From Gemmatimonadetes bacterium T265 (GTDB lineage Bacteria; Gemmatimonadota; Gemmatimonadetes; Gemmatimonadales; Gemmatimonadaceae), in assembly GCA_019973575.1 (NCBI GenBank), contig BPUI01000001.1, positions 1,220,342-1,252,341 on the forward strand: 32,000 nt of DNA, in the 5' to 3' direction. A model generated the notes under the pieces. The model had not been told where the DNA came from. It did no database searches and saw only the letters and a list, made by a program, of their open reading frames with translations. Below are positions 1-27,526 of this stretch, in pieces. Made by a program: the position numbers and the translations under genes. How positions within the stretch are numbered: position 1 is the first letter of the stretch; every line of letters begins with the position of its first letter.

Positions 1-134
1 GGCACGGGGATCCGGACGCGCTGCTCGCGGAGTACCGGCGGGCGGTGGCGGACGTGGAGGCGACGCGCGAGGCGCTCAAGGCGCAGCTCGCGGGGGCGCT
101 GGAGTCGGCACTCAGCATCGGGACGGCGGCGTGA
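1..134 (+). CDS. 3' end of upstream gene, probably type I R-M methyltransferase subunit (HsdM), partial
   Basis: Frame 3 reads ...EYRRAVADVEATREALKAQLAGALESALSIGTAA with TGA at 132-134. This overlaps the GTG start (131) of the HsdS-like ORF (GTGA overlap, operon-style coupling). The HsdM call rests on synteny only; 43 residues are not diagnostic. Confidence 0.45.
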   Translation, partial: HGDPDALLAEYRRAVADVEATREALKAQLAGALESALSIGTAA

Positions 135-1633
135 CGCCGGAGGCGCTGCGGGCGCAGTTCGACGTGTTGGCGGAGGCGCCTAACGGCGTCGAGAAACTAC
201 GCGAACTGGTCCTACGGCTGGCGTTCCAGGGACGCCTGCTCGGCGAGCCCAGCACGCGGGTGAGCGATGGGCTGCCCAATGGCTGGGCATGGCGAACCGT
301 CGGAGATCTGGCAAACGCGATCGACAGCGGATTTGCATGTAACAAGCAGAACGAGGTCGCTGACGGCTACGTCCATCTCCGCACACACAACGTCGGCACA
401 GATGGGCGGCTCAACTTCGACCTCGTCGTCCGCATCGCGCCGGATAGGGTGCATCCCGAGCGGGCACGCCTGCAGGCGGGCGACGTGCTCTTCAACAACA
501 CAAATAGCCAGGAGCTTGTCGGCAAAACCTGCTTGGTCGATCGCGACTACGAGTACGGCTTCAGCAATCACCTGACGAGAGTTCGGGTCAGCGACGCGGT
601 CGCGCCCGGTTATCTCGTGCGCTACTTCAATCTGCTGCTCCGTACGGGATACTTCGCCTCGTACTGTAATCGCTGGATCGGCCAAGCCGGCATCAACTCA
701 AAGATGCTCCGCGAGGTGACCATCCCTGTCGCGCCGATTGCTGAGCAGCGTCGCATATTGGCGAAGGTCGACGAGCTGATGGCGCTCTGCGACGAGCTGG
801 AAGCGCAGCAGCAGCGTCGCGCCGAGGCGCGGGTGCGGGCGAACCGGTCGGTGTTGCACCACCTCGTGGAGGCCAGCGGCGACGAGGCGCTCGCGGCGGG
901 GTGGGAGCGGCTGCGCGAGAACTTCGGGGTGCTCTACGACGCGCCGGAGCCCCTAGCTGAGTTGCGGCAGTCGGTGTTGCAGCTCGCCGTGCGCGGCAAG
1001 CTTGTTCCATTCGACGCCGCCTCGTGCACCGCGCCGCTCGGCGAAGTCCTGGCCGAGAGCTCACTCAACGGCATCGCCACAAAGCCGCATGACGGGCCAA
1101 CTGGAACACCGATTCTACGGATCAGCGCCGGAACGGCGCGGCGCGACGGCATCGTCGAGGAGAGCGACCACAAGTTCCTGGACCTCGACGCCGCGTCAAT
1201 CGACACATACGCCTTGCGACCTGGGGACCTGCTCGCGTGCCGCTTCAACGGCAACCTCCGTTTCGTCGGACGCATGAGCCTATACACCGGAGCGAGCGGC
1301 GCCACCCAGGTCTACCCGGACAAGTTGATCCGATACCGCGTCGCTCCGGACAGGGCGGACCCCGCGTACGTCCGCCACGTGTTCAATGCGCCCGACACGC
1401 GGCGGCTCATTGAGGCCGAGTGCGCAACCACGGCGGGCAACATCGGCATCAGTGCCGAGCGGCTCCGCACCATTCCTATCCCCGTTCCCTCTCTCATCGA
1501 GCAGCGCCGCACAATCGCCAGGATCGACGCGATTATGGCCCTGTGTGACCGCCTCGACGCCCAGCTCACCCACGCGCGCGAACGCTCGGCCCGCCTGGCT
1601 GATTCGGTTGTGCATCGCCTCACCGCGGCGTAA
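131..1633 (+). CDS. hsdS: Type I restriction-modification specificity subunit (HsdS), two target-recognition domains
   Basis: 500-aa ORF with the classic two-fold HsdS layout. Two variable regions (first opens with LPNGWAWRTVGDL, second with PLGEVLAESSLNG) are each followed by near-identical conserved helices: IAEQRRILAKVDELMALCDELEAQ and LIEQRRTIARIDAIMALCDRLDAQ. GC is visibly lower in the first variable region (301-360 is 55% by hand count). Confidence 0.9.
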   Translation: MTPEALRAQFDVLAEAPNGVEKLRELVLRLAFQGRLLGEPSTRVSDGLPNGWAWRTVGDLANAIDSGFACNKQNEVADGYVHLRTHNVGTDGRLNFDLVVRIAPDRVHPERARLQAGDVLFNNTNSQELVGKTCLVDRDYEYGFSNHLTRVRVSDAVAPGYLVRYFNLLLRTGYFASYCNRWIGQAGINSKMLREVTIPVAPIAEQRRILAKVDELMALCDELEAQQQRRAEARVRANRSVLHHLVEASGDEALAAGWERLRENFGVLYDAPEPLAELRQSVLQLAVRGKLVPFDAASCTAPLGEVLAESSLNGIATKPHDGPTGTPILRISAGTARRDGIVEESDHKFLDLDAASIDTYALRPGDLLACRFNGNLRFVGRMSLYTGASGATQVYPDKLIRYRVAPDRADPAYVRHVFNAPDTRRLIEAECATTAGNIGISAERLRTIPIPVPSLIEQRRTIARIDAIMALCDRLDAQLTHARERSARLADSVVHRLTAA

Positions 1634-1751
1634 GCGCGCCGGACGCCTAACGCAAGTCGACACCCTGACGCGCGTATCGGTCGCGCGGTGGCGAGCACGG
1701 CGTGCACCGCCCGGCACGGCCGCCCGTAGGCAATCCACACCGCTCGCCCGA

Positions 1752-1772
1752 CGCCGCGCCTTCGGCGCGGCG
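1752..1772. terminator. GC-rich hairpin between convergent hsdS and kinase genes (candidate bidirectional terminator)
   Basis: cgccgcgcc-ttc-ggcgcggcg gives 9-bp perfectly complementary arms (effectively 8 bp plus a cUUCGg-type loop). It lies 119 nt after the hsdS stop and 35 nt after the kinase stop. There is no clear U-tract. Confidence 0.35.
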
Positions 1773-1806
1773 CGGACCTCCGCCGCGTGTGGCTCGGCAA
1801 CCGGCA

Positions 1807-4341
1807 CTACCTCGTGAGCGTGAACGTGAACGGGAGCTGCACGAGCTGCTTCACCTTCTTCCCGCCGATCTCGGCCGGGTAGAACCTCGCGCGGCTCACG
1901 CCGTCCTTCGCGGCCTGCGTGAAGAGGTCGTTCGTCGACTCGAGCACCTTCCACGTGCTCATGTCGGCGAGCCCCGTGGTGTCGACGACGAATTGCGCCG
2001 TGACCTTGCCGTCGCCGCCGCCGCCGAACTTGAGCGCCTCCGGGTAGCTGGCCGAGAGCGTGCCCGGGACAGCCGCTGCCTGCTTCTCGACCTGGAACTC
2101 GAAGTAGGTCATCCCCGTGGACGCGCGCCCGGTCGGCGTTGCCGATCCTGGGAGCGGCGCAGACGACGCTGGTTTGGTCGGCCATTGCCCTGGCGCGGCG
2201 CCCTGCGACTGGACGACTTGGGGACTCGCCGGCTCCGTACTCTCCGAGTGGCCGGCGACGCGTGCGGCCACGTTCCCGGACACCAGCCCGAGCACCGCGG
2301 CCGCGCCCCATGCAAGGGCGGCGAGTCGTCGGTCCAGCAACGCGCGGCCCGCGACGGCGGCGACGTTGGCCGTCGCCGCGCCGACCGCGACCTGCTGCGC
2401 CCCGATCTCGCGCACGAGCCGGCCGCGGAGCTGTGCCGCGGCGCCGCCGAGTTGGCGGAGCACGCCGGGGCCGGCCGCGAGCGCCCGCTCGATCTCGTCG
2501 CGGCGGCGGGCGAAGCGCGCCTCCAGGGCCGCGAGTTCGGTGGGATCGACGGCCTTCGACGGATCGAAGAGAAACGTCCGTTCGACAAACCGCCGCCACG
2601 CGACGAGATCGTTCGCCCGCTTTCCGCCGAAGCCAGGGACGGCGACGACGGCCGCGTACGTGACGTCGGCCGCCGTCTCGATCCCGTAGGACGCCAGCGT
2701 CGCCGCGCGTCCGGCGCCGATCCCCGGCACTCCGCTGCTGGCGATGAAGTGCCCGTCGAGGTACTGCTGGAGCTGGTGCTCGCGGCGCCTTGCGTCCAGC
2801 TCCTGCCGCGCGCGCCGTTTGTCCGTGTCGAGCCCCTGGTGTTCGGACCGCAGCGCGTCGAGTTCTTGCCGTTTCGCGCCGAACTGCCCCGCCGCCCCGC
2901 CGATCTCGCGCGTCCACCGTTCCTCCATGCTCCGGAGGCGCGCGCCTGCCGCCTCGACCTCTCGCGTGCGGCGCTCGTGCTCCCCCGCGAGCCCCGAGCC
3001 GCGCCGCAGGCCGAAGAAGAGCAGGAGCAACCCGGCCGCGACGGCGTCGGCCGGCGCTCCGGCGCCGCCCACGGTGCCCGCGACGAACGCGCCCCCGGCA
3101 GCGGCGGCGACGAACCGGTGACTCCGCCACGCGGCGCGTCTCCAGCGTGGCACGGGCGCGGTGGGCTGGGCCGCCGCGGACGCGGTGGTGAGCGCAACCG
3201 GGATCGCGGGACTCGCCTCGGGTGCCGGAACACCCATGATCGCCGCCCACACCTCGACCGCGTTGAAGCCGGCGAGATGCTGCACGCCGACGAGCACGCT
3301 CGCGAAGAAGTCCGGCCCGCCGGCGTTCGCGATCGCGCACCAGGGACAGGCGCCGAGCCCGCGCGGATATTTGTGCCCCGGCATGACGGCGCACGTCGTG
3401 ACATCCTTCGCCAGCGCGCCGAGCGCGGTCTTCCACTCGGCCGCGGTAGGGCGGGCGCCGTCCCGAACCCCGTCGCGCCCGAACGCGCGCTCGAACAGGT
3501 CGGCGACGTCCGCCGACGCGCTCGCGAGCGGGAGCGCGTTAGGCGGCGGCGCCATCTGGAGGGTGCCCGCGTTCCGGCCGAAGGCGAAGCGGAACTCGGC
3601 GATGGCCTGCTCGAGCGGCATGTCGCCCGCGCCGGCGTACCGCCCCGCGAACGGGTGCCGGCCCATGAACAGCAGGTGGAAGACGAGGACGGCGAGCCCG
3701 AACGCGTCGTGGTTCGGCGTCCGGGTAATGCCGACGAAGCTCTTCCCCTGAAGCTCCGGCGGCGTGAAGTGCCCGACGCCGACCTCGCACGGAAACCAGC
3801 GTGACCCGTCGCGGATCTGGAACGAGTCGCAGTCGATGAGGCGGACGCGCCCCTCGCGGGCGACGAGCACGTTGCCCTGATTGACGTCCCCGATCACGTG
3901 CCCCGCCGCATGCACCTGCGCCATCGCCGCCGCCAGGTTGTGCGCGACGATGACGAGGCGTTGCCAGTCGACGTGCGGGAACTCCGTCTTGCGCGAGATC
4001 GGCGAGTAGAGCCGGTGGACGGGCGCCCCGCTCGCGCGCGGCATGACCAGGCCGACCACGGGCGCGCCCGCGCCGGCTGCGCGCGCGTGCGCGTGAAGCG
4101 TCGCCGTCGGCCACGCCGCAACCTCCGTCAGCGCGGGGCGCACGCCGCGCACCATCGCGGCGAGCTTCGCCGATTGCTCGGCGTCTGCCGTCTCGTGGTA
4201 CAGCTTGGCGACGCAGTCCGGGGCGTCGATGATCTCGTAGACGTTCCCCTCGCCCCCTCGTCCGATCTCCCCGCCGAGGTGCAGCGGCCGCCCCGCCGCG
4301 TCGACGAGTGCCCCCCACGGTGGCGCCGTGGTGCTCGTCAT
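1807..4341 (-). CDS. Ser/Thr protein kinase of a vWA/PP2C/kinase triad (YegI-like), with helix-hairpin-helix region and an in-frame C-terminal TonB-like module (844 aa)
   Basis: The real start is ATG 4341 (MTSTTAPPWG...). The upstream 260 codons of the 1104-aa ORF are an Arg-rich shadow of the PP2C gene. Kinase motifs: Gly-loop GEIGRGGEGNVY, Lys in VAKLY, catalytic HVIGDVNQGNVLV, IDCDSF. These are followed by C-x5-H-x8-C-x2-C (TTCAVMPGHKYPRGLGACPWC), a hydrophobic hairpin, coiled-coil-like charged repeats, two HhH motifs (GVPGIGAGRAATL, VPGFGGKRANDLV), a TM helix, a P/S-rich linker and a TonB_C-like end. No stop codon occurs before 1807. Confidence 0.9.
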   Translation of the reverse strand: MTSTTAPPWGALVDAAGRPLHLGGEIGRGGEGNVYEIIDAPDCVAKLYHETADAEQSAKLAAMVRGVRPALTEVAAWPTATLHAHARAAGAGAPVVGLVMPRASGAPVHRLYSPISRKTEFPHVDWQRLVIVAHNLAAAMAQVHAAGHVIGDVNQGNVLVAREGRVRLIDCDSFQIRDGSRWFPCEVGVGHFTPPELQGKSFVGITRTPNHDAFGLAVLVFHLLFMGRHPFAGRYAGAGDMPLEQAIAEFRFAFGRNAGTLQMAPPPNALPLASASADVADLFERAFGRDGVRDGARPTAAEWKTALGALAKDVTTCAVMPGHKYPRGLGACPWCAIANAGGPDFFASVLVGVQHLAGFNAVEVWAAIMGVPAPEASPAIPVALTTASAAAQPTAPVPRWRRAAWRSHRFVAAAAGGAFVAGTVGGAGAPADAVAAGLLLLFFGLRRGSGLAGEHERRTREVEAAGARLRSMEERWTREIGGAAGQFGAKRQELDALRSEHQGLDTDKRRARQELDARRREHQLQQYLDGHFIASSGVPGIGAGRAATLASYGIETAADVTYAAVVAVPGFGGKRANDLVAWRRFVERTFLFDPSKAVDPTELAALEARFARRRDEIERALAAGPGVLRQLGGAAAQLRGRLVREIGAQQVAVGAATANVAAVAGRALLDRRLAALAWGAAAVLGLVSGNVAARVAGHSESTEPASPQVVQSQGAAPGQWPTKPASSAPLPGSATPTGRASTGMTYFEFQVEKQAAAVPGTLSASYPEALKFGGGGDGKVTAQFVVDTTGLADMSTWKVLESTNDLFTQAAKDGVSRARFYPAEIGGKKVKQLVQLPFTFTLTR
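1810..2112 (-). other. TonB C-terminal-like domain (last ~100 aa of the kinase ORF)
   Basis: MTYFEFQVEKQAAAVPGTLSASYPEALKFGGGGDGKVTAQFVVDTTGLADMSTWKVLESTNDLFTQAAKDGVSRARFYPAEIGGKKVKQLVQLPFTFTL matches the TonB_C pattern as I know it (YP..a...g..G.V...fvVd..G.v....vl.s.......aa..av...rf.Pa...G..v...v..Pf.F). It is preceded by a TM helix (LAALAWGAAAVLGLVSGNVAARV) and a Pro/Ser-rich spacer. Recognised by eye, not by HMM. Confidence 0.7.
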
Positions 4342-5195
4342 GCGGTCCAGGCGGTCGCGGTCCGGCGCGTCGCGAGGACGAGCGTCTTGTCGTCGTCGGT
4401 GCGCGCGTTGACGCGGGGCGAGTCCAGGAATTCCCGCAGCCCCGCGACGAGCCCCGGCGCGTCGCCCGTCGGCCGGCCGCGGAGCTGGCCGAACATCGGG
4501 CGGAAGAACGGCGCGTGGGCCGCGCGCGCGTCGAAGCGGAGCGCGAGCCCCTGCAACCCGTCGGAGAAGAGCGCGACCTCCTCGACGATGCGGTCGCGCA
4601 CGAACGCGACCTCGAGCCGGCACAGCGCTTCGGGCTCCGTCGCGAAGAAGGTCATGTTGGCGTACTCGCCGGACTGCGGCCAGAAGACCGGGGCGTACCC
4701 GACCGGCTCTGGCGCGTCGACGACGATGGCACCGTCCCCGATCTGGGCGAAGACGGCCGCGTCCGGGCCGACGACCGCAAGCAGCAGCGTACAGGCGAGA
4801 TCGCGAGGCGTCGCGTCGAGTTCCGCCGCGCGAGCCGCGACGGCGGCGTGCACGCCGAGGAACCACGCCTCGACCGTGTCGCGCGTGGCCGCGTGGAGCG
4901 CGTGACGTTCGAGGTGATCGCGGACCTCGCCGAGGATCGCCGCGCAGGCGAGCGAGGAGCCCTCGTGCGAGAGGCGCGCGCTTCCCGCGCCGTCCGCGCA
5001 GGCGAGCGCGAGCACCTCGCCGTCCGGGCTCGCCAGGTGCTCCGTGTCCGACGCGTCCTGGCAGCCTGTCCCGGTCGCGCGGTGCGACGTCCCGACGACC
5101 GACGCCCGCACGACGCGCCACCCCGGGCGGGCCGACGTGGACCCCGAGGGCGTCGCGTCCGCCGGGAGCGGCCGGTCCGCGGTGGGGAGCGTCAC
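4338..5195 (-). CDS. PP2C-family protein phosphatase (PP2C_2 type, YegK/PphC-like)
   Basis: GTG at 5195 is the first start downstream of the vWA stop (25-nt gap). Motifs: WRVVRASVVGTSHRATGTGCQDA, ACADGAGSA, ALFSDGL. The stop TGA 4338-4340 overlaps the kinase ATG 4339-4341 (ATGA). The annotated 330-aa ORF start at 5330 would overlap the vWA gene and is Arg/Pro junk. Confidence 0.85.
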   Translation of the reverse strand: MTLPTADRPLPADATPSGSTSARPGWRVVRASVVGTSHRATGTGCQDASDTEHLASPDGEVLALACADGAGSARLSHEGSSLACAAILGEVRDHLERHALHAATRDTVEAWFLGVHAAVAARAAELDATPRDLACTLLLAVVGPDAAVFAQIGDGAIVVDAPEPVGYAPVFWPQSGEYANMTFFATEPEALCRLEVAFVRDRIVEEVALFSDGLQGLALRFDARAAHAPFFRPMFGQLRGRPTGDAPGLVAGLREFLDSPRVNARTDDDKTLVLATRRTATAWTA

Positions 5196-5220
5196 GCGCC
5201 GCGCCGCCGGTGCCGGACGG

Positions 5221-5910
5221 TTAGGCGCTGATGGACGCCCAGCCGCCAGCCGCGGTCGGGTTGACCAACGCGACGCTGGTGCCCGGCGTCGACTGCGAGA
5301 TCGAGCGCATCGAATTGGAGAGCCAGACAAACAGGTCGCGGAAGCGGAGGCCGTCCATCTTGAGCGCGGGCCGCGCCGGCGAGAGCTGCGCGAGCACGTC
5401 CATCTTCGCCCCGCCGATCCCGACGGCGAACATGGAGAACGACTTGCTCGCTTCCCCCTCGCGGATCATCGCGCTCGCTTCGTCGACCCGGTCCGTCGGG
5501 GCCCCGTCGGTCATGAGGAAGACCCACGGACGGTAGAACGCGATGCCGTTCACCTCGTAGACGGCCTTCCGCTGACGGAGCAGGTCGAGGCCCTGCAGAA
5601 TCGCGCCGCCCATGGGCGTATCGCCGCCCGCGGTCAGCATCGGCGGCACGTAGGCGCTCGCGCCGACGAAGTCGTGGGCGACGCGCACGGGGCCAAAGGT
5701 CACCGCGGCGATCTCGACGCGCTTCGCCGCGAGCGCGTCCGCGTTGAGCTCGTCCCTCAACGCGACGAGTCCACGGTTGAGCTGTTGAATCGGCTGCCCG
5801 CCCATCGAACCGGAGGTGTCGAGCAGCAGCACGACGGGACACCGCGGCTCGGGGTTCTCCGCGAAGTCGTCGGAGCCGAAGGCGATCTGCTCGTGGGTGG
5901 ACTCTTCCAT
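5221..5910 (-). CDS. von Willebrand factor A (vWA) domain protein, TerY/YegL-like
   Basis: MIDAS motif DTSGSM, later GGDTPMG and LMTDG; the N-terminal NPEPRCPVVLLLD is typical of TerY-type vWA proteins. I prefer ATG 5910 (MEESTHEQ...) over ATG 5970. By hand count, third-position GC is about 70% in the 20 codons between them and about 88% afterwards. Confidence 0.85.
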   Translation of the reverse strand: MEESTHEQIAFGSDDFAENPEPRCPVVLLLDTSGSMGGQPIQQLNRGLVALRDELNADALAAKRVEIAAVTFGPVRVAHDFVGASAYVPPMLTAGGDTPMGGAILQGLDLLRQRKAVYEVNGIAFYRPWVFLMTDGAPTDRVDEASAMIREGEASKSFSMFAVGIGGAKMDVLAQLSPARPALKMDGLRFRDLFVWLSNSMRSISQSTPGTSVALVNPTAAGGWASISA

Positions 5911-6194
5911 GATGCGGGGCGACGAATCGTGGGACGCCCGAACGGGACTCGAGCGATGAAGCAGTGACATGGATCACGCTGCCACAACCTGCGGGAGAGT
6001 CGCGGCACCAGCAAGAGCCGCCGTTCTGCCGCGGTCGGGTACGTCCTCTGTCGACACATGTAGGGACAGGGGTACGCGACGGAGCCGACGCGCCGCGTGC
6101 TGGAGAACGCGGGGCTGTGCCACGAGGGCGTCCTCCGGCGCCGGACGACGAGCCCGCTACAGCCCCGCCCCGCGCGATGCCCACGGCCTCGCTA

Positions 6195-6524
6195 TCACGC
6201 GCGGCTCGCGGGCGCGACCCAGGCCCGCCCGGTCGCGAGGTCGCGCGTCACGTCCCAGCCGCGGAGGAAGGTGACGCCGAGGTTCACGGCGAGCGCGAGC
6301 CCCTCCGTGTCGCACACGACGCGCATCGGCACCGCGACCGCTCCCGTCGCAGGCGCGACGCGGGCGGCCAGACTCGCCGGGCTCTCCACGGTCAGCGTCC
6401 CCGGCGTAAGCTGGACGGCGATCGCCCGCCCGGCGAACACGTCCAGCCCCAGGGCGCCGTCGCCCGGGCCGGTCCCCGCATCGGTCACCACACCGATCCG
6501 GCGCGTGTCGGCGCGCGTGGACAC
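6195..6524 (-). CDS. Hypothetical protein (109 aa), weak resemblance to retropepsin-like (clan AA) small proteases
   Basis: GTG start. Third-position GC is about 95% by hand count over the whole ORF, which supports real coding. The C-terminal NLGVTFLRGWDVTRDLATGRAWVA resembles the LG.dFL..f.v..D motif that closes bacterial retropepsin-like domains. The N-terminal VVTDAGTG is only a degenerate D-T/S-G-A. The function call is tentative. Confidence 0.55.
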   Translation of the reverse strand: MSTRADTRRIGVVTDAGTGPGDGALGLDVFAGRAIAVQLTPGTLTVESPASLAARVAPATGAVAVPMRVVCDTEGLALAVNLGVTFLRGWDVTRDLATGRAWVAPASRA

Positions 6525-6728
6525 GTGAGACCATGGAAGCTGTTAGGCGGCGGGGGGCACGCGCCCGAGTCCGGGCGGTGTACGGGTGCCCGGCGACGTA
6601 CGTGGAACGCGCGCGAGTAGACGGCCGAACGGACCCGGCGGTGTGCCAGGGGTGCCGTCCGGTGCGACGTCAGTGCTCCCGCGCCAGGGTGTGCCCTCAG
6701 ACTATCCGACCGAGTCACCCGTACACGA

Positions 6729-6760
6729 GAACCGGCCAGCGCGCGCGCGCTGGCCGGTTC
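6729..6760 (-). terminator. 32-nt perfect palindrome immediately downstream of tRNA-Phe (candidate terminator)
   Basis: gaaccggccagcgcgc|gcgcgctggccggttc is exactly self-complementary (about a 14-bp stem plus 4-nt loop). It starts 32 nt after the tRNA 3' end on the minus strand. A weak U-containing tail follows (UCGUGU). Confidence 0.55.
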
Positions 6761-6791
6761 CTAAGCTCTGTCCCTTCAACACGTTAGAGAG

Positions 6792-6864
<73 letters not shown>

Positions 6865-6897
6865 GTGATCTGGTAACCCATTGCAAATCAACGACTT

Positions 6898-6931
6898 GCA
6901 AACCTGTACCAGAATAAGTCCGCAAACCTGT
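6898..6931. repeat. Two copies of the 10-mer GCAAACCTGT, 24 bp apart, in the AT-richer segment upstream of tRNA-Phe
   Basis: GCAAACCTGT occurs at 6898-6907 and 6922-6931. A related TTGCAA occurs at 6881-6886 and 6895-6900 (self-complementary hexamer). This is the only clearly AT-enriched stretch of the window and is presumably the tRNA promoter/UP region. I could not assign a canonical -10. Confidence 0.4.
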
Positions 6932-7654
6932 CTCAAAACGTGTCTCAGACCGATCTGGTCCTGACCGGCGAGCGGCGCTCCATAGAATAGCCGGCCCGGC
7001 GCGAGACCGGCAAGCGGCCGCCTCGCGGGGTGCGACCCCGGAACGTCAGTCTGACCGCCCGCCATCACGGCCGGCGTGTCGCCTCTCCGATGTCACTGCC
7101 GTGATTGCCGGGTTGCATGCTGTGATACGCCACCCGCCGGCAGGCCGGGGGCGCGCAGCATTGTCAAGTTCACACCGGATCCTCGATGTCCGTGTGCTCG
7201 GCGGCTGGGACTCCGCGCCCGTGCTCCTCCAGGGAACGAGCACGGCAGGTTCCCGCGATCCATCGCCAGCGGGTACGCCCGCCGTCACTTGACAACGCCG
7301 TCCCACGCCGCCGGATCGTGATGCGCTCCTCCGGCCGGGCGTCGGCGTGGTGTTCGACGTGTTCGCGGTATTCGGAACCGCGATCAGCCAGGCGGACGAG
7401 CCCATGGCCGGCTTCCCCCGCCCCGGGCCGGTGATCCGGGCGACGGGCAGCGCCGTCGCGGGTGAGGTGCGCGTCCTCGTCCGCGCGCCCGCCGACGCGC
7501 GCGCCGACACACGCTAACGGGACTGCCCGCGCATCGGACGCGGCACCAACGCCGGCCACTCCCCCGGCGGACGGCTTGCGCGTACGTGCTCTCCACGCCG
7601 GCGCGCCCGCGTACCTCGCTGCCGCTCCCGGGAGCGCGCCCGAGCCCCCGCGGA

Positions 7655-10039
7655 CTACCGCGACCCCGCGGCGGGCCGGGCGCCCTCGGCGGCGGGCACG
7701 CCGGCGGGCAGGTGCTCGTGCAGGTAGCGCGTCAGCAGCTCGAACAGGTGCCGCGAGGTGTTGTCGCCCTCGCAGATGCAGTGCGACCGGTTCGGGTAGG
7801 CCATCATCGTGAACGGCTTGTTGGCGGCCACGAGGGCGTTGATCACCGCCTCGCTGTTCTGGTAGTGCACGTTGTCGTCGCCCGTGCCGTGCACGAGCAG
7901 CAGGTCGCCGCGGAGGCCGGCCGCGACCGACACGGCGGCGGCCTGGCGGTACCGCGCCGAGTCCTCTTGGGGGAGCCCCATGTAGCGCTCCTCGTAGATC
8001 GTGTCGTAGTACCGCGGGTCGCTCACCGGGGCCACCGCCATCCCCATGCGGTACAGGGCGGGGTAGCGGAACAGCAGGTTGAGCGTCGTCGCCCCGCCGC
8101 CGCTCCACCCCCATACGCCGACGCGCGCGGGATCGAGGTACGGGCGCTGTCGCAGGAGCGCCTCGACGGCGCCGGCCTGGTCGCGCGCGTTCAGCACGCC
8201 GATCTGTCCGTAGATCACCTTGCGGAACGCGCGGCCGCGCGGCGCCGGCGTCCCGCGGTTATCGACGCTCGCGACGACGTAGCCCTGCTGCGTGAGCATG
8301 AGATGCCAGAGGTACTCCGCCCCGCCCCACGCGTCGAGCACGGTCTGCGCGGCGGGTTCGCCGTAGACGGTGAAGAGCACCGGGTAGTGCTTCGTCGGGT
8401 CGAAGTCCGGCGGCGTCATCATCCAGCCGTCGAGCGTGACGCCCGCCGCGGTGGTCACGCGGAAGAATTCGGCCGGCCGGCGCTGGAGCGTCGTCACCGC
8501 GGCGCGGAGCGCGGCGTTGTCCGTGAGCGTGCGCACGACCTCGTGGCTCGGGAGCCGCACGAGTTGCGTCACCGGCGGCGCGCCGAACGCCGAGGTGGTG
8601 TGGAACGCCCAGCGTCCGTTCGGCGCGACGACGTACGTGTGCGTGCCCGGCTGGTCGGCGGGCGTCACGCGCCGGGGGGCGCCGCGCCCGTCGAGGCGCG
8701 CCGTGTAGAGGTACAACTGCGTCGCATTCTCCGGCGACGCCGTGAAGTAGAACACGCCGGCCGCGCTGTCCGTCCCGACGACGAGCGGCGCCCCGAACGC
8801 GCTGCCGGGGTTGTCCAGATCGAACGCGCCGGGCGTGAGGAGCCGCGTCGTCGCGCCGTCGCGCGACACCGTGTAGAGGTGGCGCCAGCCATCGCGCTCG
8901 CTCACCCACGTGAAGCGCCGGCCGCCGGCCGCCCAGCGCAGGTCGTCGACGACGTCGAGCCACGCGCTGTCGCGCTCGGTCAGCACGGTGCGCACCCGTC
9001 CCGTGCGCGCGTCGCCGAGCATCACCTCGTTCGTATTCTGCCGGCGGTTGAGGTGCTGCAATACCACCTCGTCGGAGTTCGCGGCCCACTCGAGCCGCGC
9101 GATGTAGTGGTCGCGCGGGTCGCCCGGCACCGCCAGCCAGCGGGTGGGGCCGCCCGCCGCGTCGACCACGCCGACGCGCGCGGCCGAGTTGGTGGTCCCT
9201 GCCTTGGGGTACTGCACGGGCGTGGCGACCGCGTAGAGCGAGTCGGTGTCGTCGACCAGCAGGTAGTCGCGCACCCCGCTCGCGTCGAGTTGCCAGTACG
9301 CGAGGCGCGTCCCGTCGGGGCTCCAGCGGAAGCCGTCGCGGAGGTTGAACTCTTCCTCGTACACCCAGTCGAAGGTGCCGTTGATGACCGTGCGCGACCC
9401 GTCGCGCGTGAGGCGCGTGATCGCGCCGTCGGCCACCCCTTCGACGTACAGGTCGTGGTCGCGCACGTACGCGACGCGCCGCCCGTCGGGCGAGAATTTG
9501 GCGAACATGAGCGTCGACGGCGCCGCGTCCCCGCCGAGCTTCCGCATCGGCCCGCCCGCGGGGTCGACGACCCAGTAGTCCCCGCGCGTGTTCTGCCGCC
9601 ACACCCGCTGCGAGTTGGTGAACACGAGGAGCCGCGCGCCCTCGGGCGACCACGCGTAGTCTTCCACCGCGACCGGGGTCGCCGCGCCGGGGGGCACGAG
9701 CCGCGTCGCCGGCACGAGTACCGTCCGCTGGCCCGTCGCGGCGTCGTAGCGCACGAGGTCGCGGCCCCCGGCGCCGTTCGCCGCCGGCTCCAGACTCGTG
9801 TACCCGGCGCCGTCGGCGAGCCACCGCCGCCCGCGCGCCGGCTGCGGCGCGAAGTCGCGCGAGGCGAACACCCGCTCGAGCGTGACGCGCGTGGGATCAC
9901 CCGGCAGCGCGGCAGTGCCCGGTTGCGCGCGGACCACCCGTCCCGACGCGAGGAGGCCCGCCGGTGCGACGGCAACGAGGGCCGCGCGGCGCACCGGCGC
10001 CCAGCGGGAACGGTCGGGGGAGTACACGGCAGTCTCCAC
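7655..10039 (-). CDS. Dipeptidyl-peptidase IV-type prolyl oligopeptidase (peptidase S9B), secreted
   Basis: 794 aa with a GTG start. N-terminal signal-like RRAALVAVAPAGLLASG. DPPIV beta-propeller signatures: FAKFSPDGRRVAYVRDHDLYV, INGTFDWVYEEEF, FRWSPDGTRLAYWQLD. Catalytic triad context: GVWGWSGGG (Ser), VHGTGDDNVH (Asp), YPNRSH (His). Confidence 0.92.
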   Translation of the reverse strand: METAVYSPDRSRWAPVRRAALVAVAPAGLLASGRVVRAQPGTAALPGDPTRVTLERVFASRDFAPQPARGRRWLADGAGYTSLEPAANGAGGRDLVRYDAATGQRTVLVPATRLVPPGAATPVAVEDYAWSPEGARLLVFTNSQRVWRQNTRGDYWVVDPAGGPMRKLGGDAAPSTLMFAKFSPDGRRVAYVRDHDLYVEGVADGAITRLTRDGSRTVINGTFDWVYEEEFNLRDGFRWSPDGTRLAYWQLDASGVRDYLLVDDTDSLYAVATPVQYPKAGTTNSAARVGVVDAAGGPTRWLAVPGDPRDHYIARLEWAANSDEVVLQHLNRRQNTNEVMLGDARTGRVRTVLTERDSAWLDVVDDLRWAAGGRRFTWVSERDGWRHLYTVSRDGATTRLLTPGAFDLDNPGSAFGAPLVVGTDSAAGVFYFTASPENATQLYLYTARLDGRGAPRRVTPADQPGTHTYVVAPNGRWAFHTTSAFGAPPVTQLVRLPSHEVVRTLTDNAALRAAVTTLQRRPAEFFRVTTAAGVTLDGWMMTPPDFDPTKHYPVLFTVYGEPAAQTVLDAWGGAEYLWHLMLTQQGYVVASVDNRGTPAPRGRAFRKVIYGQIGVLNARDQAGAVEALLRQRPYLDPARVGVWGWSGGGATTLNLLFRYPALYRMGMAVAPVSDPRYYDTIYEERYMGLPQEDSARYRQAAAVSVAAGLRGDLLLVHGTGDDNVHYQNSEAVINALVAANKPFTMMAYPNRSHCICEGDNTSRHLFELLTRYLHEHLPAGVPAAEGARPAAGSR

Positions 10040-10740
10040 GCGGGTGAGTCCTCGGTCGGCCGTACGCGGCCGACGGCGTCACGATACCGACGGCGTCGCC
10101 GTTCGCAAGCGCGGGCGGGCGCGTGCCCATCACGGCCGCGGGCGCGACCTCGCCGGTGCGCGGGGACGAACGGGCGCCGACGTGGCGTCGCGAGCGGACG
10201 CGTCGGCGCCCGTGCGGCCGCTGACGAGGTCGTGGTGGGGTGCTCGCAACCCGGACGGGACCGGAGTCCGGCTCGGGTCGGAGCGCGAGGCACACGTCAC
10301 CGACGCTGTTGGGCAACTCCGCCGGCGCGCACGGCGCACGGGTGAGCAGCCCCGGTTTCTCCCACGCTCGGTCCCGCCGCACACCTCGCGGCGAGCGACG
10401 TTGCCAACAACGTCCGGCGACGTTCTGTGAAGCCGGTGACAGGTTCAGTTCACGCCCCTGCCGATTCGCGGGCCGCGTTGTGCTCGCCGACCACGCGTCG
10501 GCCCGTTGCGGGCCGACCGCTGGTGCGCCGCGTGCCGTGCCGGTACGGTGGACCATGCGCCGCGTCCTGATCCGCGCGCCGTGCAAAGACGAACGTCCCA
10601 GGTGCGCACAGCCCTGCCGATCCACACGCACAGCGTCTTTGCGGTCACCGCAGGAGCCGCGACTTGCCGCGCTCGCGCGAAGGGCCGGTGTCGACCGGCC
10701 GCCATCCGCGCGCGGGAGGCGGCTGGGCCGGACGGGGCCG

Positions 10741-11040: not shown

Positions 11041-11318
11041 CGGTCGGGGACGGGGGTGGGGCGGGCGACCGCCCGCAGTCAGGCGCGGCGCCGGGCCCGC
11101 GCGGGGGCGCCGGGGTAGGATAGCGCCGGTCGCCGCGCGTACCGCGCCGGGCCGCAGCGTCGACCGGACGACCGTCGGCGTGCGACGGCGTGCGACGGCG
11201 TGCATCTCGTCGGCGTGTCCCTCGGCGCCGGGCGCGTAGTACCGTGTCGTACCTTCCGCCGGGCCGACTCGCCCGGAGCGCCTTCTCTGGGGCGTCCCCC
11301 AACCACCGCCCCAGGGCG

Positions 11319-11777
11319 ATGAAGCTCTGGCTCGATGCCGACGCCGCGCCCCGCGACGTGAAGGACATTTGCCTGCGCGCCTCCGAGCGGCTGCGGATCG
11401 ACGCCGTCCTCGTGGCGAACCAGCGGCTGCTCTTGCCGCCGGGCTACGCGTACGCGACGTCCGTCCGGGTCGAGGGCGGCCCTGACACGGCGGACCGCCA
11501 CATCGCGGAGCACGCGGCGGCCGGCGACGTGGCGGTCACGGCGGACATCCCGCTCGCGGCGCTCCTCGTGCCCCGCGGCGTGACCGTCATCGACCCGCGG
11601 GGCGAGGAGTACACCGCCGAGCGCGTCGGGGAGCGCCTGTCCGTGCGCAACTTCATGGACGGGCTCCGCGGGGCCGGCGTCGAGACCGGCGGGCACGGCA
11701 CGTACGGCCCGCGCGAGAAGCAGGCGTTCGCCAACGCGCTCGACCGGGCGCTCACGCGCGCCCTCCGGCGCCGCTGA
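11319..11777 (+). CDS. YaiI/YqxD family protein (UPF0178 / DUF188)
   Basis: Start at ATG 11319: MKLWLDADAAPRDVKDICLRASERLRIDAVLVAN...DRHIAEHAAAGDVAVTADIPLAALLV..GVTVIDPRGEEYT...VGERLSVRNFMDGLRGAG. This is the family signature as I know it (I.VDADACP.., D..I......GDiVvTqDi.LA..ll..Ga..l.prG). The first 43 codons of the 195-aa ORF are Arg-rich junk. Confidence 0.85.
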   Translation: MKLWLDADAAPRDVKDICLRASERLRIDAVLVANQRLLLPPGYAYATSVRVEGGPDTADRHIAEHAAAGDVAVTADIPLAALLVPRGVTVIDPRGEEYTAERVGERLSVRNFMDGLRGAGVETGGHGTYGPREKQAFANALDRALTRALRRR

Positions 11778-11945: not shown

Positions 11946-12122
11946 ACGTGACGGTTGAAGAACGCGCCAACGCGGCCGAACGGCGGCTAGTCGATTCAGG
12001 TTCTGTCCGTAAGTGACGGCGAGCAGGAACTGCTCGGCGGCCTGCGGCAGCCGGTGTAGCTGCAGCCGGCGCAGCCCGACGACGCGCTGAAGCTCCGCGA
12101 AGCGGGCCTCAACCTTCTTGGA
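11940..12122 (-). pseudogene. C-terminal remnant of a DDE transposase (IS5/IS1182-like), 5'-truncated
   Basis: The tail of ORF 11937..12740 reads SKKVEARFAELQRVVGLRRLQLHRLPQAAEQFLLAVTYGQNLNRLA. This matches the conserved C-terminus of IS5/IS1182-type transposases (..vE..F..lK...GLRR...RGL.kv....ll.a.a.NL.RL). Everything upstream in that frame is Arg/Pro/Ser junk antisense to the polymerase gene, so only about 45-60 codons survive. No terminal inverted repeats or DDE core are visible. Confidence 0.6.
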
Positions 12123-12300
12123 CCGTCTTGCGCGCCGGCGCCGCCCGGGTGAACTCGGGCGTGCCAACGCGCGCCCCGACCGCCCGGCGCGCGACGTCGT
12201 GCCAGTCGACGCGATTCGTGCACGCGCCGGGACGTGGGCGCCCACCCCGTCGGGGCGCGGGCCGGCGGTAGATTGGCCGCATGGCGCGCCCTGCGATCCG

Positions 12301-14715
12301 GTGACTGCCGCCGCGCCCGCCGCCGCGGCGGAGTGGCTCTGGGGCTGGGACCCGACCCCCGGCATCGTCTCCGTCCACGCGGAGCCCGACGGCCGGGCGG
12401 CGGTGTGGCGCCGCCTCCCCGAGACGGGGGCGCTCGTCCGCGAGGACGCGCGCTTCCGCCCTTGGCTGCTCCTCGACGCCCTCGACGACCTCCGCCACCT
12501 CGGCCCCGCCCTCGGCCCCGAGGGCGACGCGCGCGCGGCCGTGTGGTACCGCGAGCTCGCCGGGCCCGGCGCCCTGCGCTGGCTCGTCAGCGCCGGGGAC
12601 GGCCGGGCCCTCGGCGCGGCGCTGCTGCGCGGCGCGGCGCGGCGGCTCGGCCGGCCCGTCGGCCACTTCGGCGACCTGCCCCGCGACGCGGTGCTCCGCT
12701 TGCCGCCGGAGGAGCAGTACCTCGTCGCGACGGGGCGCACCTACTTCCGCGACCTCCCCTTCGACGCGCTGCACCGCCTGCAGTTCGACCTCGAGACGAC
12801 CGGCCTGGACGCCCGCTGCGACCGCATCTTTATGGTCGCGGTGCGCTACCCCGGCGGCGACACCGAGGTGCTCGAGGCCGCGGGCGACGACGCGGCCGCC
12901 GAGGCGGACCTCATCCGGCGCCTGGTGGCGCGGGTGCGCGAGGCTGACCCCGACGTCCTCGAGAACCACAACCTACACGGCTTCGACCTGCCCTTCCTCG
13001 ACCGGCGCGCCCGGACGCTCGGCGTCCCGCTCGCCCTCGGCCGGATCGGCGGGCCGGGGCTGCGGACGCGGGCCGCCCAGCGGGGCGTCGATCTCGGCGC
13101 CCAACGGGGTGCGCAGCGCGGCGCCCCCGGCCCGGCCGACCGCCGGCGCGTGCGCTTCGTCGCGCCGGGCCGCGAGCTGATCGACACGCTCGACGCCGTG
13201 CGGCGCCACGACTTCGTCCGGCGGGACCTCCCCGGCCACGGGCTCAAGGCGGTCGCGCGCCACCTCGGGATCGCCGCCCCCGACCGCGCGTACCTCCGCG
13301 GCGACCAGGTCTACGCGACGTACCGCACCGACCCGGCGCGCGTGCGGCGCTACGCGACGGACGACGTGCGCGAGGTGGCCGAGTTGTCGCGCCTGCTGGG
13401 CGGGCCGGCGTACGCGCTCGCGCAGCTCGTGCCGCGCCGCTACGAGCGCCTCGCCGACGCGGGCCCTGCCACCGGCATGATCGACCCCACGCTCGTGCGC
13501 GCGTACCTCCGCGCCGGGGAGGCGCTCCCGGCGCACGCGGTCGACGACGGCACGCCGCACAGCGGCGCGGCGCTGCACCTCTTCGCGACGGGCGTTGCCC
13601 GCCGCGTGGTGAAGGCCGACGTGGCGAGCCTGTACCCCTCGCTCATGCGCGCCGAGCGCATCGGGCCGGCGCGCGACCGCCTCGGCGCGCTGCTCGCACT
13701 CGTCGACGACCTGGTCGAGCGGCGGCTCGACGCGAAGGCGCGCGCGGGGGCGGCCGTGCCGGGCTCGGCGGCGCGCCACGCGCACGACGCGATGGCGGCG
13801 GCGCTCAAGCTCGTGGTGAACTCGGCCTACGGGTACCTCGCGGCCGGCGGCACCCTCGCGCGCTTCGCCGACGTACACGCCGCGAACGCGGTCACCCGCC
13901 GGGGCCGGGACGTGCTCGCCCTGCTGTGCCGGGAGCTCGCGGCGCGCGGCGTGACCCTCGTCGAGGCCGACACCGACGGGGTCTACTTCGCCGTGCCCGC
14001 GGCGTGGACCGCGGCGGACGAGCGCCGCGTCGTGGCGGAGGTCGCCGCGCTGCTGCCGCCGCTCGTCCGACTCGAGCTCGAGGGGCGCTACGCGGCGATG
14101 CTGTCGCACGAGCCCAAGAACTACGCGCTGCTCGACTACGAGGGGGGCCTCACGCTGCGCGGCGTCGCCTTCCGGTCCAGCCGCGCGGCGCCGTTCGGCG
14201 AGCGCTTCCTGCGCGCGGCAGTCACGCGGCTGCTCGCCGGCGACGTGGCGGGCGTGCGCGCGGCCTACCTCGCGACCGTCGCCGCGCTGCGCGGCCGCGC
14301 GCTCCCCACGGCCGACGTCGCGTCGCGGGTGCGGCTCACGAAGTCGCCGGCGCAGTACGGCGCGACGCGCGCGGCGCGCCGCGAGCTGCCCTACGAGGTG
14401 CTGCTCGCCGCGGGACGGACGACCTGGCGCGCCGGCGACCGCGTGCGCGTCTACCGCCAGCAGAACGGCGCGGGCGGGCTGGTCGCGTCGGACGACGACG
14501 CGGCGGCGGGGGCTCCGGCCACAGACCTGCGCGCGTACGACGCCGAGCACTATGTGCGCCTGCTGCGGGCGACCTACGCGGCGCGCCTCGCGCGCGCGTT
14601 CAGCGCGGCGGACTTCGGCGTCGTCTTCGCCGACGCGGAGCAGCTGCCGCTGTTCGCGCCGTCCGTCGACACGATCCGCCCGATCCTGCGGCGGCATGCG
14701 CCGGCAACCAGCTGA
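12301..14715 (+). CDS. Family B DNA polymerase with 3'-5' exonuclease domain (Pol II-like)
   Basis: ExoI FDLETTG (12784), ExoII NHNLHGFDLPFL, ExoIII YATDDV, motif A DVASLYPS (13618), motif B KLVVNSAYGY (13807), motif C VEADTDGV (DTDG at 13969-13980). The start is uncertain. GTG 12301 (VTAAAPAAAAEWLWGWDPTPGIVSVHAEPDG...) sits just before the conserved N-terminal domain. ATG 12118 and GTG 12199 would add Arg-rich sequence overlapping the transposase scar. Confidence 0.88.
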   Translation: MTAAAPAAAAEWLWGWDPTPGIVSVHAEPDGRAAVWRRLPETGALVREDARFRPWLLLDALDDLRHLGPALGPEGDARAAVWYRELAGPGALRWLVSAGDGRALGAALLRGAARRLGRPVGHFGDLPRDAVLRLPPEEQYLVATGRTYFRDLPFDALHRLQFDLETTGLDARCDRIFMVAVRYPGGDTEVLEAAGDDAAAEADLIRRLVARVREADPDVLENHNLHGFDLPFLDRRARTLGVPLALGRIGGPGLRTRAAQRGVDLGAQRGAQRGAPGPADRRRVRFVAPGRELIDTLDAVRRHDFVRRDLPGHGLKAVARHLGIAAPDRAYLRGDQVYATYRTDPARVRRYATDDVREVAELSRLLGGPAYALAQLVPRRYERLADAGPATGMIDPTLVRAYLRAGEALPAHAVDDGTPHSGAALHLFATGVARRVVKADVASLYPSLMRAERIGPARDRLGALLALVDDLVERRLDAKARAGAAVPGSAARHAHDAMAAALKLVVNSAYGYLAAGGTLARFADVHAANAVTRRGRDVLALLCRELAARGVTLVEADTDGVYFAVPAAWTAADERRVVAEVAALLPPLVRLELEGRYAAMLSHEPKNYALLDYEGGLTLRGVAFRSSRAAPFGERFLRAAVTRLLAGDVAGVRAAYLATVAALRGRALPTADVASRVRLTKSPAQYGATRAARRELPYEVLLAAGRTTWRAGDRVRVYRQQNGAGGLVASDDDAAAGAPATDLRAYDAEHYVRLLRATYAARLARAFSAADFGVVFADAEQLPLFAPSVDTIRPILRRHAPATS

Positions 14716-25834: not shown

Positions 25835-26422
25835 TCATCCGGCCGGCATCCCGGCCGGGGCCGGCGCCTGGTCCGACCGGCCCGGGGCCGGGCGGCGCCG
25901 GCGCTGGGTCGCGGCGGCGGCGACGGCGATCAGGAGTCCGACGGGCAGGCGCTCGAGGAAGGTGATCGCGGCGTTCGCCGCGGGGTTGTCGTACAGGGCG
26001 GCGAAGCGGCGGAGCTCTGCCCGCTTCGCCGCGACGGCGGCCGGCGAGGCGCCCCGCGCCCGGAGCGTGGCGAGGGCATGGCTCTCCATCTCGGCCAAGA
26101 AGTGCGTGCGGTAGACGCGGAAGTAGAGCATCTCCCAAGTCGCCGTATAGCACGCGCTCGCCACGAGCACCGTGAGCGCGCCGACGGCCAGCGCGCGTCC
26201 GAAGCTCACCACGCCGCCCGCCACCCCGTCGCGGTCCGCGCGCACCGCCGCGAAGACGAGCAGGAGCGCCCCGACCATCGTCGCGTAGCCGAGCCACCGG
26301 GCGCGGTCGGGCCCGATCCGGTCTTCCAGGGGCAGGGTGATGACCAGTAAGGCCGACAGCACCGCGCCGGCGAGCAGGCCGTACGTGAGCACTGGCCGCC
26401 GCACCGAGGGCATGAGGGGCAT
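25835..26422 (-). CDS. DUF4199-family membrane protein (195 aa)
   Basis: ATG 26422 is preceded by ccggag (SD-like). Sequence: MPLMPSVRRPVLTYGLLAGAVLSALLVITLPL..., four predicted TM helices, and a C-terminal amphipathic region YFRVYRTHFLAEMESHALATLRARGASPAAVAAKRAELRRFAALYDNPAANAAITFLE, typical of DUF4199. Confidence 0.8.
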   Translation of the reverse strand: MPLMPSVRRPVLTYGLLAGAVLSALLVITLPLEDRIGPDRARWLGYATMVGALLLVFAAVRADRDGVAGGVVSFGRALAVGALTVLVASACYTATWEMLYFRVYRTHFLAEMESHALATLRARGASPAAVAAKRAELRRFAALYDNPAANAAITFLERLPVGLLIAVAAAATQRRRRPAPGRSDQAPAPAGMPAG

Positions 26423-26696
26423 GGGGCACTCCGGTGGAGAGGAGGGATACGCCGCGCGAGGCGCAGCGCGGGACGTACGCGCCGTTCGGTCGGAGGCGCG
26501 CGTCAGGCTGGTAGTACGTGGAGACACGATGCCGCGGGACCTCGGGCGGCGCATCGCCCGGAAGGATGAGGTGCGCGTGGATCGGGTGCGGCCCGGCTGC
26601 AGCGGTCGCCCAGCGGGGGCGGCGCGCACGTCGCCTCATCCTTTCGGGGGAGGGTGCTGCTGCGCCCCGGCCGCGGGCCGCCGAGGGCGTGGCGGC

Positions 26697-27290
26697 TCAG
26701 GGGAGGAGCCCGGCGGCCCGCGCGCTCTGCACGACCTGCGTGCGGCGGCGGGCCCCGAGCTTGTCGAACAGCCGCCCCGCATGGGACTTGACCGTGTGCT
26801 CGCTCACCGCGAGGCGGGCGGCGATCTCGCGCGTGCTGAGCCCCTCGGCGATCAGCGTCAGGATCTCGTGCTCGCGGCGGGTGACGCCGAAGCGGGCGAG
26901 CCGTCGCGCGAGGGGCGTCTGGTCGGTCGCGTCGCGAGCCTCGGTCGTCGGGGCCGCGACCGCCACGGTCGCGGCCCCGGGGAGGGACGACGCTGGGGGT
27001 GGGTCATGCGACACCTCGCGCACGACCTCGCGCACGACCTCGACGGGTACCTCCCGGACGCGTTCGACGACCACCTCGCGCGTCTCGACGCGGAGTTCGA
27101 CCGGCATCGCCGCCCTCGGCCGGACGAACCGCCGGCCGAGCCACACCCCGAGCGCCGCGAATAGCGCGGCGACCAGGCCGCCGTACAGTTGGAGCGCGTG
27201 CTCCACCACCAGGTAGCGGTATTCCACGACCCGGAGCGCGGTGGTCAGCGCGCCCGCGACGAGGCCGTACAGGAGGACGGTCCGCTTCAC
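26697..27290 (-). CDS. Membrane-anchored LuxR/GerE-type transcriptional regulator
   Basis: The C-terminal GerE HTH is LTRREHEILTLIAEGLSTREIAARLAVSEHTVKSHAGRLFDKLGARRRTQVVQSA. Two N-terminal TM helices: KRTVLLYGLVAGALTTAL and LYGGLVAALFAALGVWLG. A repetitive linker reads REVVVERVREVPVEVVREVVREV. I prefer GTG 27290 as the start; TTG 27311 is possible. Confidence 0.85.
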   Translation of the reverse strand: MKRTVLLYGLVAGALTTALRVVEYRYLVVEHALQLYGGLVAALFAALGVWLGRRFVRPRAAMPVELRVETREVVVERVREVPVEVVREVVREVSHDPPPASSLPGAATVAVAAPTTEARDATDQTPLARRLARFGVTRREHEILTLIAEGLSTREIAARLAVSEHTVKSHAGRLFDKLGARRRTQVVQSARAAGLLP

Positions 27291-27526
27291 AGATGCCCGA
27301 GGTAGGAGCAACGCCGCTCGAATCGCGCGGGCCGTCGAGGCGACCGCCGCGCGGCATACGGAGAGTTGCGGTCAAGCATAACGGCGCACTCGCGCGAAAT
27401 CCGGGCGGACGTCCGGCGGCCCAGTCCACCACCCGCGACGGCGACCCAGGGGAGGGACAATCGCCGAACCGGGCCCTGCGTCACAGAGTGAATCGCGGGT
27501 ACGGCTGCGTGGAAAATCTGTCCGGT

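Follow-up and report, generated by a model that had tools for sequence, protein, structure and literature searches.

A YegI-type triad kinase of Gemmatimonadetes bacterium T265 continues in frame into a TonB C-terminal domain

We examined a stretch of 32,000 nucleotides from Gemmatimonadetes bacterium T265 (assembly GCA_019973575.1, contig BPUI01000001.1, positions 1,220,342 to 1,252,341), here referred to as the window, and identified an 844-amino acid (aa) protein in which a membrane kinase continues into a third transmembrane (TM) helix (TM3), a linker and a TonB C-terminal domain. Judged by its sequence, the protein is a YegI-type (COG4248) kinase of a TerY-P triad to which the third TM was added. 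Its product is identical (100%, P0001) to the hypothetical protein tb265_11330 of the same organism. After the ~660-aa YegI-like core, neither a stop codon nor a change of frame occurs through the last ~185 codons, and the claim of an earlier note, that a TerY-P/YegI-type kinase is fused in frame to a TM helix, a spacer and a TonB_C domain, was borne out by the continuous open reading frame (ORF) and by relatives sharing the architecture. Giving it slightly less than an even chance, we read the tail as a non-energised periplasmic reader of TonB boxes, or a tether to them, that a three-pass YegI-type kinase gained in a small Gemmatimonadota lineage.

The features of the protein, delimited with the help of a full-length AlphaFold2 (AF2) model having a mean predicted local distance difference test score (pLDDT) of 85.8, are as follows:

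1807 to 4341, minus strand: 844-aa kinase ORF including its stop codon (ATG at 4341, TAG at 1807-1809)
3406 to 4308, minus strand: Ser/Thr kinase domain, aa 12-312 (AF2, pLDDT ~95)
3325 to 3402, minus strand: CHCC zinc knuckle, aa 314-339 (C317, H323, C332 and C335; ligands in 90/90 family members; a small beta/alpha knuckle in AF2)
2995 to 3147, minus strand: TM hairpin TM1/TM2, helices aa 399-424 and 429-449 (hydropathy, AF2)
2350 to 2991, minus strand: cytoplasmic long helices, aa 451-517 and 600-664, around a helix-hairpin-helix (HhH) region, aa 519-588 (AF2, pLDDT >90)
2257 to 2343, minus strand: TM3, aa ~667-695, RR-LAALAWGAAAVLGLVSGNVAARV, with no S-x3-H motif (hydropathy, AF2, alignment)
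2110 to 2256, minus strand: disordered linker of 49 aa rich in Pro, Ser, Thr, Gln and Ala, aa 696-744 (pLDDT <50)
1810 to 2109, minus strand: TonB C-terminal domain, aa 745-844 (Pfam TonB_C, Foldseek against PDB, identity to exbB-linked TonBs)

The core, from aa 22 to 631, is collinear with Escherichia coli YegI (39% identity, E 4e-128 by BLASTP). The profile searches for Pkinase and HHH proposed in the earlier note gave weak matches in both cases (Pkinase with 25.9 bits on the 844-aa protein, under its cut-off, and HHH_5 with 18.2 bits at aa 537-580). Residues K46, N154, D170 and D172 were kept in 90/90 family members and the Gly-loop positions in 86-90 of the 90, while L549, S551, G553 and E555 of the HhH region were near-invariant in the family alignment. 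The CHCC knuckle agrees with the zinc ribbon reported for TerY-P kinases, and the first two hydropathy peaks (aa 410-426 and 429-445) align with TM I and II of YegI.

With regard to the tail, the positions previously given for LLDRR (2340), the TM helix (2325), the spacer (2244), M744 (2112) and YPEALKFGG (2046) were exact. A third hydropathy peak (~aa 673-691, value 1.85) is preceded by an Arg-Arg pair, and the full-length AF2 model has a helix at aa 667-689, an unstructured part at 687-767 and a compact alpha/beta domain at 768-842. Pfam TonB_C matched aa 775-842, scoring 31.8 bits when the whole protein was searched and 35.5 bits for the tail alone, both above its gathering cut-off of 24.6 bits, and TIGR01352 scored 27.2 on the tail, with a cut-off of 27.1. 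When the tail was modelled alone, pLDDT exceeded 90 across aa ~748-840. All of the top 16 Foldseek matches in the PDB were C-terminal domains of the TonB family, including TonB2 and the TonB homologue FusB, and among the matches were TonB chains from the FoxA, BtuB and FhuA complexes (6i97_D with a template-modelling score of 0.85 and a root-mean-square deviation of 1.7 Å, 2gsk_B with 0.80 and 2grx_C with 0.78). Profile and predicted structure thereby confirmed the domain proposed from the letters. No position that is invariant or nearly so among the aligned Gemmatimonadota TonB_C domains has been lost from the tail, which also keeps the C-terminal strand KQLVQLPFTF.

YegI has been described as a two-pass protein with both termini in the cytoplasm, based on PhoA-LacZ-alpha fusions at six positions (bioRxiv 10.1101/819920). 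By homology, the kinase and the coiled-coil/HhH arm of the T265 protein should likewise be cytoplasmic. Since the C-terminus of YegI is cytoplasmic and one more TM helix is present here, the tail is predicted to be periplasmic, where the TonB domain should lie in the N-in/C-out orientation of TonB.

The only feature in favour of two genes having been joined through a missed stop codon or a frameshift is the odd architecture itself. The in-frame order of kinase, TM and TonB_C was found in five proteins of 839-882 aa from separate assemblies (the window protein, P0002, P0003, P0004 and P0007). P0002 is 90% identical to the window protein, its 844-aa product being identical in two independent assemblies, and P0003 is 72% identical. 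The T265 locus, moreover, sits on a contig of 2.99 Mb. G+C at third codon positions was 0.92 for the core and 0.90 for the tail, whose TonB_C part reached 0.97. The ratio of nonsynonymous to synonymous substitution rates (dN/dS), determined against P0002 and P0003, respectively, was 0.28 and 0.30 for TonB_C and 0.25 and 0.28 for the kinase domain, both measures thus being continuous over the junction. The tail domain is under purifying selection like the kinase domain, while the linker is near-neutral (0.89 and 0.84), with 17% identity to P0003. An assembly or annotation artefact was rejected on this comparative and codon evidence, and its remaining probability is vanishingly small.

Free TonB-like products starting at TTG 2340 or ATG 2112, which had also been suggested, were rejected, as neither codon is kept in P0002 and P0003 (L668 is replaced by P and M744 by T) and no promoter-like site was found in the window from 1500 to 6400.

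As to the origin of the tail, aa 737-844 are most closely related to small proteins annotated as TonB. One of them, P0122 (111 aa), is 82% identical to the tail and directly upstream of exbB-exbD-exbD. It consists of only the C-terminal domain, as the tonB gene (L001, 359-1172) is split by a frameshift in a contig of 3x coverage; both a poly-Pro tract and a TM bearing S-x3-H are present on the split-off N-terminus. Further small TonB matches on ~1-kb contigs are probably similar fragments. A one-genome-per-species scan yielded 80 tonB loci, all from Gemmatimonadota, with exbB directly downstream in 79 and a kinase upstream in none. In the nearest clade, full-length resident TonBs have 240 aa and read MFNNLIESKAKKQRS...SV[IL][IV]HAGL...PPPPKEPPPPPP...IPDVIPKVDLS...GKGVAGG..., followed by the C-terminal domain. 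The tail shares 75-85% aa identity with the exbB-linked TonBs of the Gemmatirosa clade, and only from TYFEFQVEKQ (aa 745) on; neither TM3 nor the linker shows any relation to TonB in the alignment. Compared with L002, nucleotide identity was 85% and dS 0.44, which is comparable to the values between orthologous TonBs of different species of the clade. The metagenome-assembled genome DASWUT01 has both the fusion P0003 (locus L083) and a tonB-exbB operon (L003), whose C-terminal domains are 80% identical in a codon alignment and 79% in a protein alignment. As these alignments indicate, the tail domain descends from the clade's own exbBD-linked housekeeping TonB.

A tree built on the C-terminal domains grouped four of the tails (window protein, P0002, P0003 and P0004) with the TonBs L001-L005 (bootstrap 100/100). 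The tail of P0007 was placed inside another Gemmatimonadaceae TonB clade, with 82% identity to L015, L020 and L028. The kinase-core tree united the four Gemmatirosa-type fusions in a clade (166/200) with the tail-less P0005 and P0006 as sister (200/200); P0007 was placed outside a larger clade to which the tail-less P0008-P0011 belong as well (178/200). No remnant of a tail was found 3′ of the tail-less P0005 gene. At least two independent captures of a resident TonB domain is the simplest reading of both trees. A single ancient fusion was rejected, the five tails being monophyletic in 0/100 replicates and the five tailed kinases in 0/200 core-tree replicates.

The earlier note had described the tail as a complete, self-contained TonB. 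Only one of four defining features, the domain, was found, and homology to TonB begins no earlier than aa 745; the description was overstated, because S-x3-H, linkage to exbB/exbD and a long Pro-rich spacer are all absent. Aligned with the resident TonB TM, VSVIVHAGLISA, TM3 has no S-x3-H where resident TonBs read SV[IL][IV]HAGL. The linker is of mixed composition and 49 aa long, compared with ~100 aa carrying PPPPKEPPPPPP in the resident TonB, and has neither PPPP/KP nor IPDVIPKVDLS...GKGVAGG. No exbB or exbD was found in the 32-kb window or at the fusion loci L082, L083 and L086, in contrast to 79/80 tonB loci. Since S-x3-H is missing, the locus has no ExbBD partner and the linker is short and non-rigid, the tail, from its sequence and setting, is predicted not to be an energy transducer.

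A genuine second TonB would have TM3 coupled to ExbB/ExbD encoded elsewhere, with the kinase as its cytoplasmic extension. The TM, spacer and TonB_C do follow each other in the order and orientation of TonB, and NCBI labels P0003 as "energy transducer TonB". In P0007, however, a His is found on the periplasmic side of the helix, which is the wrong end; the lack of S-x3-H in TM3, of any TonB similarity before aa 745 and of exbB/exbD in the window and the fusion loci (present at 79/80 true tonB loci), together with a linker half as long and with no Pro-rich rod, makes this explanation very unlikely. The NCBI label is misleading, and automatic annotation mislabels kinase fusions in this way.

Such fusions are rare. 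TonB_C was present on 5 of the 120 best homologues, and full-text literature searches returned no description of a kinase-TonB_C fusion, in agreement with the earlier note, to which no such description was known. When 1.84 billion cluster representatives were searched exhaustively with the tail by phmmer, 4780 matches were obtained, and the best 150 of these hold one kinase fusion, P0003, whose match covers the whole tail query. The others of the best 150 were TonBs, proteins with tandem TonB_C domains and proteins of 546-642 aa; the long ones tested (9/9) were all Peptidase_M56 (BlaR1-like) proteins with two TonB_C domains. None of the 80 loci of the one-genome-per-species scan, a collection that T265 lies outside, had a kinase fusion. 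A metagenome scan confirmed at least six loci, and none of the matches listed spans both halves. All fusion counts are lower bounds, because the word-indexed protein search missed long proteins when queried with C-terminal fragments: it failed to return the 844-aa protein itself and known fusions, which makes its counts of long multi-domain proteins unreliable, and the exhaustive phmmer search recovered P0003.

About 1 in 10 of the 120 closest homologues is extended past the core by such tails. P0027, P0102, P0068, P0045, P0054, P0079 and P0087 have a third TM followed by TPR, TPR plus SH3, TolA/TonB_2-like, coiled-coil or unassigned tails, with P0087 carrying a TM and a domain of the TolA/TonB_2 type (63 bits). 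The C-terminus of YegI-like kinases appears to be a hot spot for envelope-facing add-ons. Since tails were added repeatedly (TonB_C twice, TolA-like, TPR/SH3), this suggests that the C-terminus is the site where the kinase family gains envelope inputs.

The kinase gene is the last of a triad, whose two other genes are:

5221 to 5970, minus strand: vWA gene (TerY/YegL-like), triad gene 1 (Pfam VWA, 36.8 bits)
4338 to 5330, minus strand: PP2C phosphatase gene (PphC/YegK-like), maximal ORF (Pfam PP2C_2, 162 bits)

The ATG of the kinase and the stop codon of PP2C overlap (ATGA). As orthologues of the phosphatase are 273-293 aa long, its true start is probably near 5190-5220. In L082, L083, L084 and L086, too, a vWA gene comes first and is followed by PP2C and the kinase. 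The fusions were always part of such a triad, as on the contigs of P0007 (L082) and P0003 (L083), where the kinase comes after vWA and PP2C. G+C is reduced around the triad, with 0.67-0.75 over window positions 1-7000 versus mostly 0.75-0.79 past 10000. A fourth conserved triad gene was considered and rejected, as the ORFs of 352-355 aa adjoining three of the triads are not mutually homologous. Upstream in T265, 6025-6159 (plus strand) and 6204-6590 (minus strand) are decayed remnants of an acetyltransferase gene and of a 355-aa ORF with no Pfam match, both of which are intact upstream of the L086 triad. Synteny with L086 is kept, and both remnant genes look eroded in T265.

Next to the kinase gene, and convergent with it, lies a restriction-modification (R-M) gene:

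131 to 1633, plus strand: type I R-M specificity subunit HsdS (Methylase_S; PADLOC Specificity_I, 222 bits)

Its G+C (0.66) is below that of the rest of the window, and hsdM and hsdR would lie past the window start. No terminator or promoter signals were found between the convergent hsdS and kinase genes. At the P0007 locus (L082), a patatin-like phospholipase and an SMODS/DncV-like cyclase, a pair of the cyclic-oligonucleotide-based antiphage signalling system (CBASS) type, are encoded at 2174-4620, ~1.8 kb upstream of the triad, with a 354-aa ORF in between and a DUF4236 gene downstream. The P0003 locus (L083) has, at 4622-10443, the Pnkp (kinase-phosphatase-ligase)/Hen1 RNA-repair pair and two RlaP nucleotidyltransferase genes, convergent with the fusion kinase. 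A toxin-antitoxin gene of the Xre-MbcA/ParS type is near P0002 (L086), and an HSDR_N/RAMA gene near the tail-less P0005 triad. PADLOC models matched neither the vWA nor the PP2C protein at E<=0.01, and only weak matches to generic kinase models (PD-T4-6, MkoA and mad6) were detected for the kinase. As far as the cited accounts go, TerY-P triads are tied to restriction and defence contexts (Anantharaman et al. 2012, cited in PMC11090510), and antiphage activity has been validated for a TerY-P-like system whose kinase carries an OB fold (Gao et al. 2020). From the gene neighbourhoods, a defence role for the triad is plausible. The sensing of phage by the tailed kinase, proposed in the earlier note, is speculative, although its triads are indeed surrounded by defence genes.

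If the tail is a non-energised reader or tether, the TonB domain would dock by beta-strand pairing onto the TonB boxes of outer-membrane transporters, or perhaps onto invaders bearing a TonB box or onto TonB itself. By analogy with the complexes 2GSK, 2GRX and 6I97, we infer that a TonB domain binds the TonB box through strand pairing and needs no energy for it. YegI has no extracytoplasmic sensor domain, and its activation kinetics are second-order (bioRxiv 10.1101/819920). The kinase, which is activated in a concentration-dependent manner, could cluster differently upon docking, and the altered clustering would then set a phosphorylation state governed jointly with the PP2C and vWA partners. 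Several points speak against such a reader: a TonB-dependent receptor, exbB or exbD is linked at none of the fusion loci; the linker, at half the length of the resident one, may not reach the outer membrane; TM3, being rich in Ala and Gly, is only moderately hydrophobic; no output is known for the kinase triad; and the likeness to the resident TonB could reflect the nearest available donor rather than selection for shared partners.

The tail could instead act as an effector or decoy, either as a competitor of the resident TonB in binding TonB boxes or as bait for phage and bacteriocin proteins that hijack TonB; entry through TonB-dependent routes would be blocked or, as in a guard model, the grip of the invader would trigger the kinase. 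Periplasmic C-terminal fragments of TonB are dominant-negative in E. coli, and the tail, 75-85% identical to the resident domain, keeps all of its conserved positions. Triads are found beside type I R-M (window), CBASS (L082), Pnkp/Hen1 (L083) and a toxin-antitoxin gene (L086), and antiphage systems have been reported among TerY-P-like triads. Neighbourhood association is weak evidence, however; the PADLOC models left vWA and PP2C unmatched and the kinase with only weak generic matches, and T265 is not known to be the target of any TonB-dependent phage or bacteriocin, so we regard this role, in either variant, as unlikely. To a similar degree we doubt that the domain is a passive anchor that does no more than localise the kinase, at the cell wall or the outer membrane, and carries no information. 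The short linker with its near-neutral evolution and the generic envelope-binding tails (TPR, SH3 and TolA-like) of other family members would fit an anchor, but TonB_C is under purifying selection equal to that of the kinase, and the housekeeping TonB specifically was captured at least twice, which is more specific than a generic anchor needs.

Beyond a reader or tether in this one lineage, the YegI-type triad kinases might in general be sensors of envelope breach or outer-membrane traffic, to which lineages independently added TonB, TolA-like and TPR/SH3 modules. The TonB tail would then read the exposure of TonB boxes, be it by ligand-loaded transporters or by phage and bacteriocin proteins parasitising the Ton system, and pass it to a cytoplasmic phosphorylation switch beside an HhH arm of the DNA-binding type. 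We offer this wider proposal as a speculation with a low probability. The membrane kinases YegI and its relatives are active but have no sensor domain and no known signal, and the TonB tail offers a concrete, testable hypothesis for their input. TerY-P-type triads are linked to phage defence. The tail itself is a well-understood ligand-binding domain, gained at least twice, and is present in an organism with a complete genome.

Elsewhere in the window, a DUF188 (YaiI/YqxD) gene (11124-11777, plus strand) and a gene for an 865-aa family-B DNA polymerase with an RNase-H-like exonuclease domain (12118-14715, plus strand), unusual for a bacterial chromosome neighbourhood, were identified. The far end encodes a LuxR/GerE-type regulator (26697-27311, minus strand), a DUF4199 membrane protein (25835-26629, minus strand) and a PAS-GAF histidine kinase (30611-31990, minus strand), with no visible relation to the triad.

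Compared with YegI, PphC (YegK) and YegL of E. coli, the T265 triad shares the kinase motifs, CHCC knuckle, TM hairpin, coiled-coil, HhH region and both partners. YegI ends at 648 aa in the cytoplasm, whereas the T265 protein adds TM3, the linker and TonB_C (aa 661-844); and yegJ lies between the phosphatase and kinase genes in E. coli, whereas the three T265 genes are contiguous and overlapping. Within the extent of the TerY-P accounts cited above, TerY-P triads have in common with it vWA, PP2C and a Ser/Thr kinase with a post-kinase zinc ribbon, as well as defence-rich neighbourhoods. On the same accounts, the kinase of Gao et al. ends in an OB fold and CoCoNuT-linked kinases end at the zinc ribbon, whereas that of T265 is membrane-embedded with a predicted periplasmic TonB domain.

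With Gemmatimonadota TonB (e.g. P0212, 240 aa), the protein shares the fold and residues of the C-terminal domain, the order of TM, linker and domain and the predicted N-in/C-out topology, but the resident TonB has ~16 residues in the place of the 660-aa cytoplasmic kinase. The M56/BlaR1-like proteases of Gemmatimonadota are likewise membrane signalling proteins with a periplasmic module of this TonB_C subtype. Their cytoplasmic or membrane signalling part is a zinc protease and their architecture is common, whereas the kinase fusion is rare. P0210, P0277, P0320 and P0328-P0429, from Gemmatimonadota metagenomes, are M56 proteases with one or two TonB_C copies, and P0323 and P0211 have two or three TonB_C domains in tandem. 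Going by these predicted architectures, Gemmatimonadota have widely reused the TonB C-terminal domain as a periplasmic module, on kinases as well as on BlaR1-like proteases. Receptor-type bacterial Ser/Thr kinases (e.g. PknB with its PASTA repeats) cross the membrane once, and in them the TM follows directly on the kinase. The T265 protein resembles them in joining a cytoplasmic Hanks-type kinase across the membrane to an envelope-facing binding domain, but differs in that its TonB domain comes after a two-pass hairpin and a 200-aa cytoplasmic coiled-coil/HhH arm.

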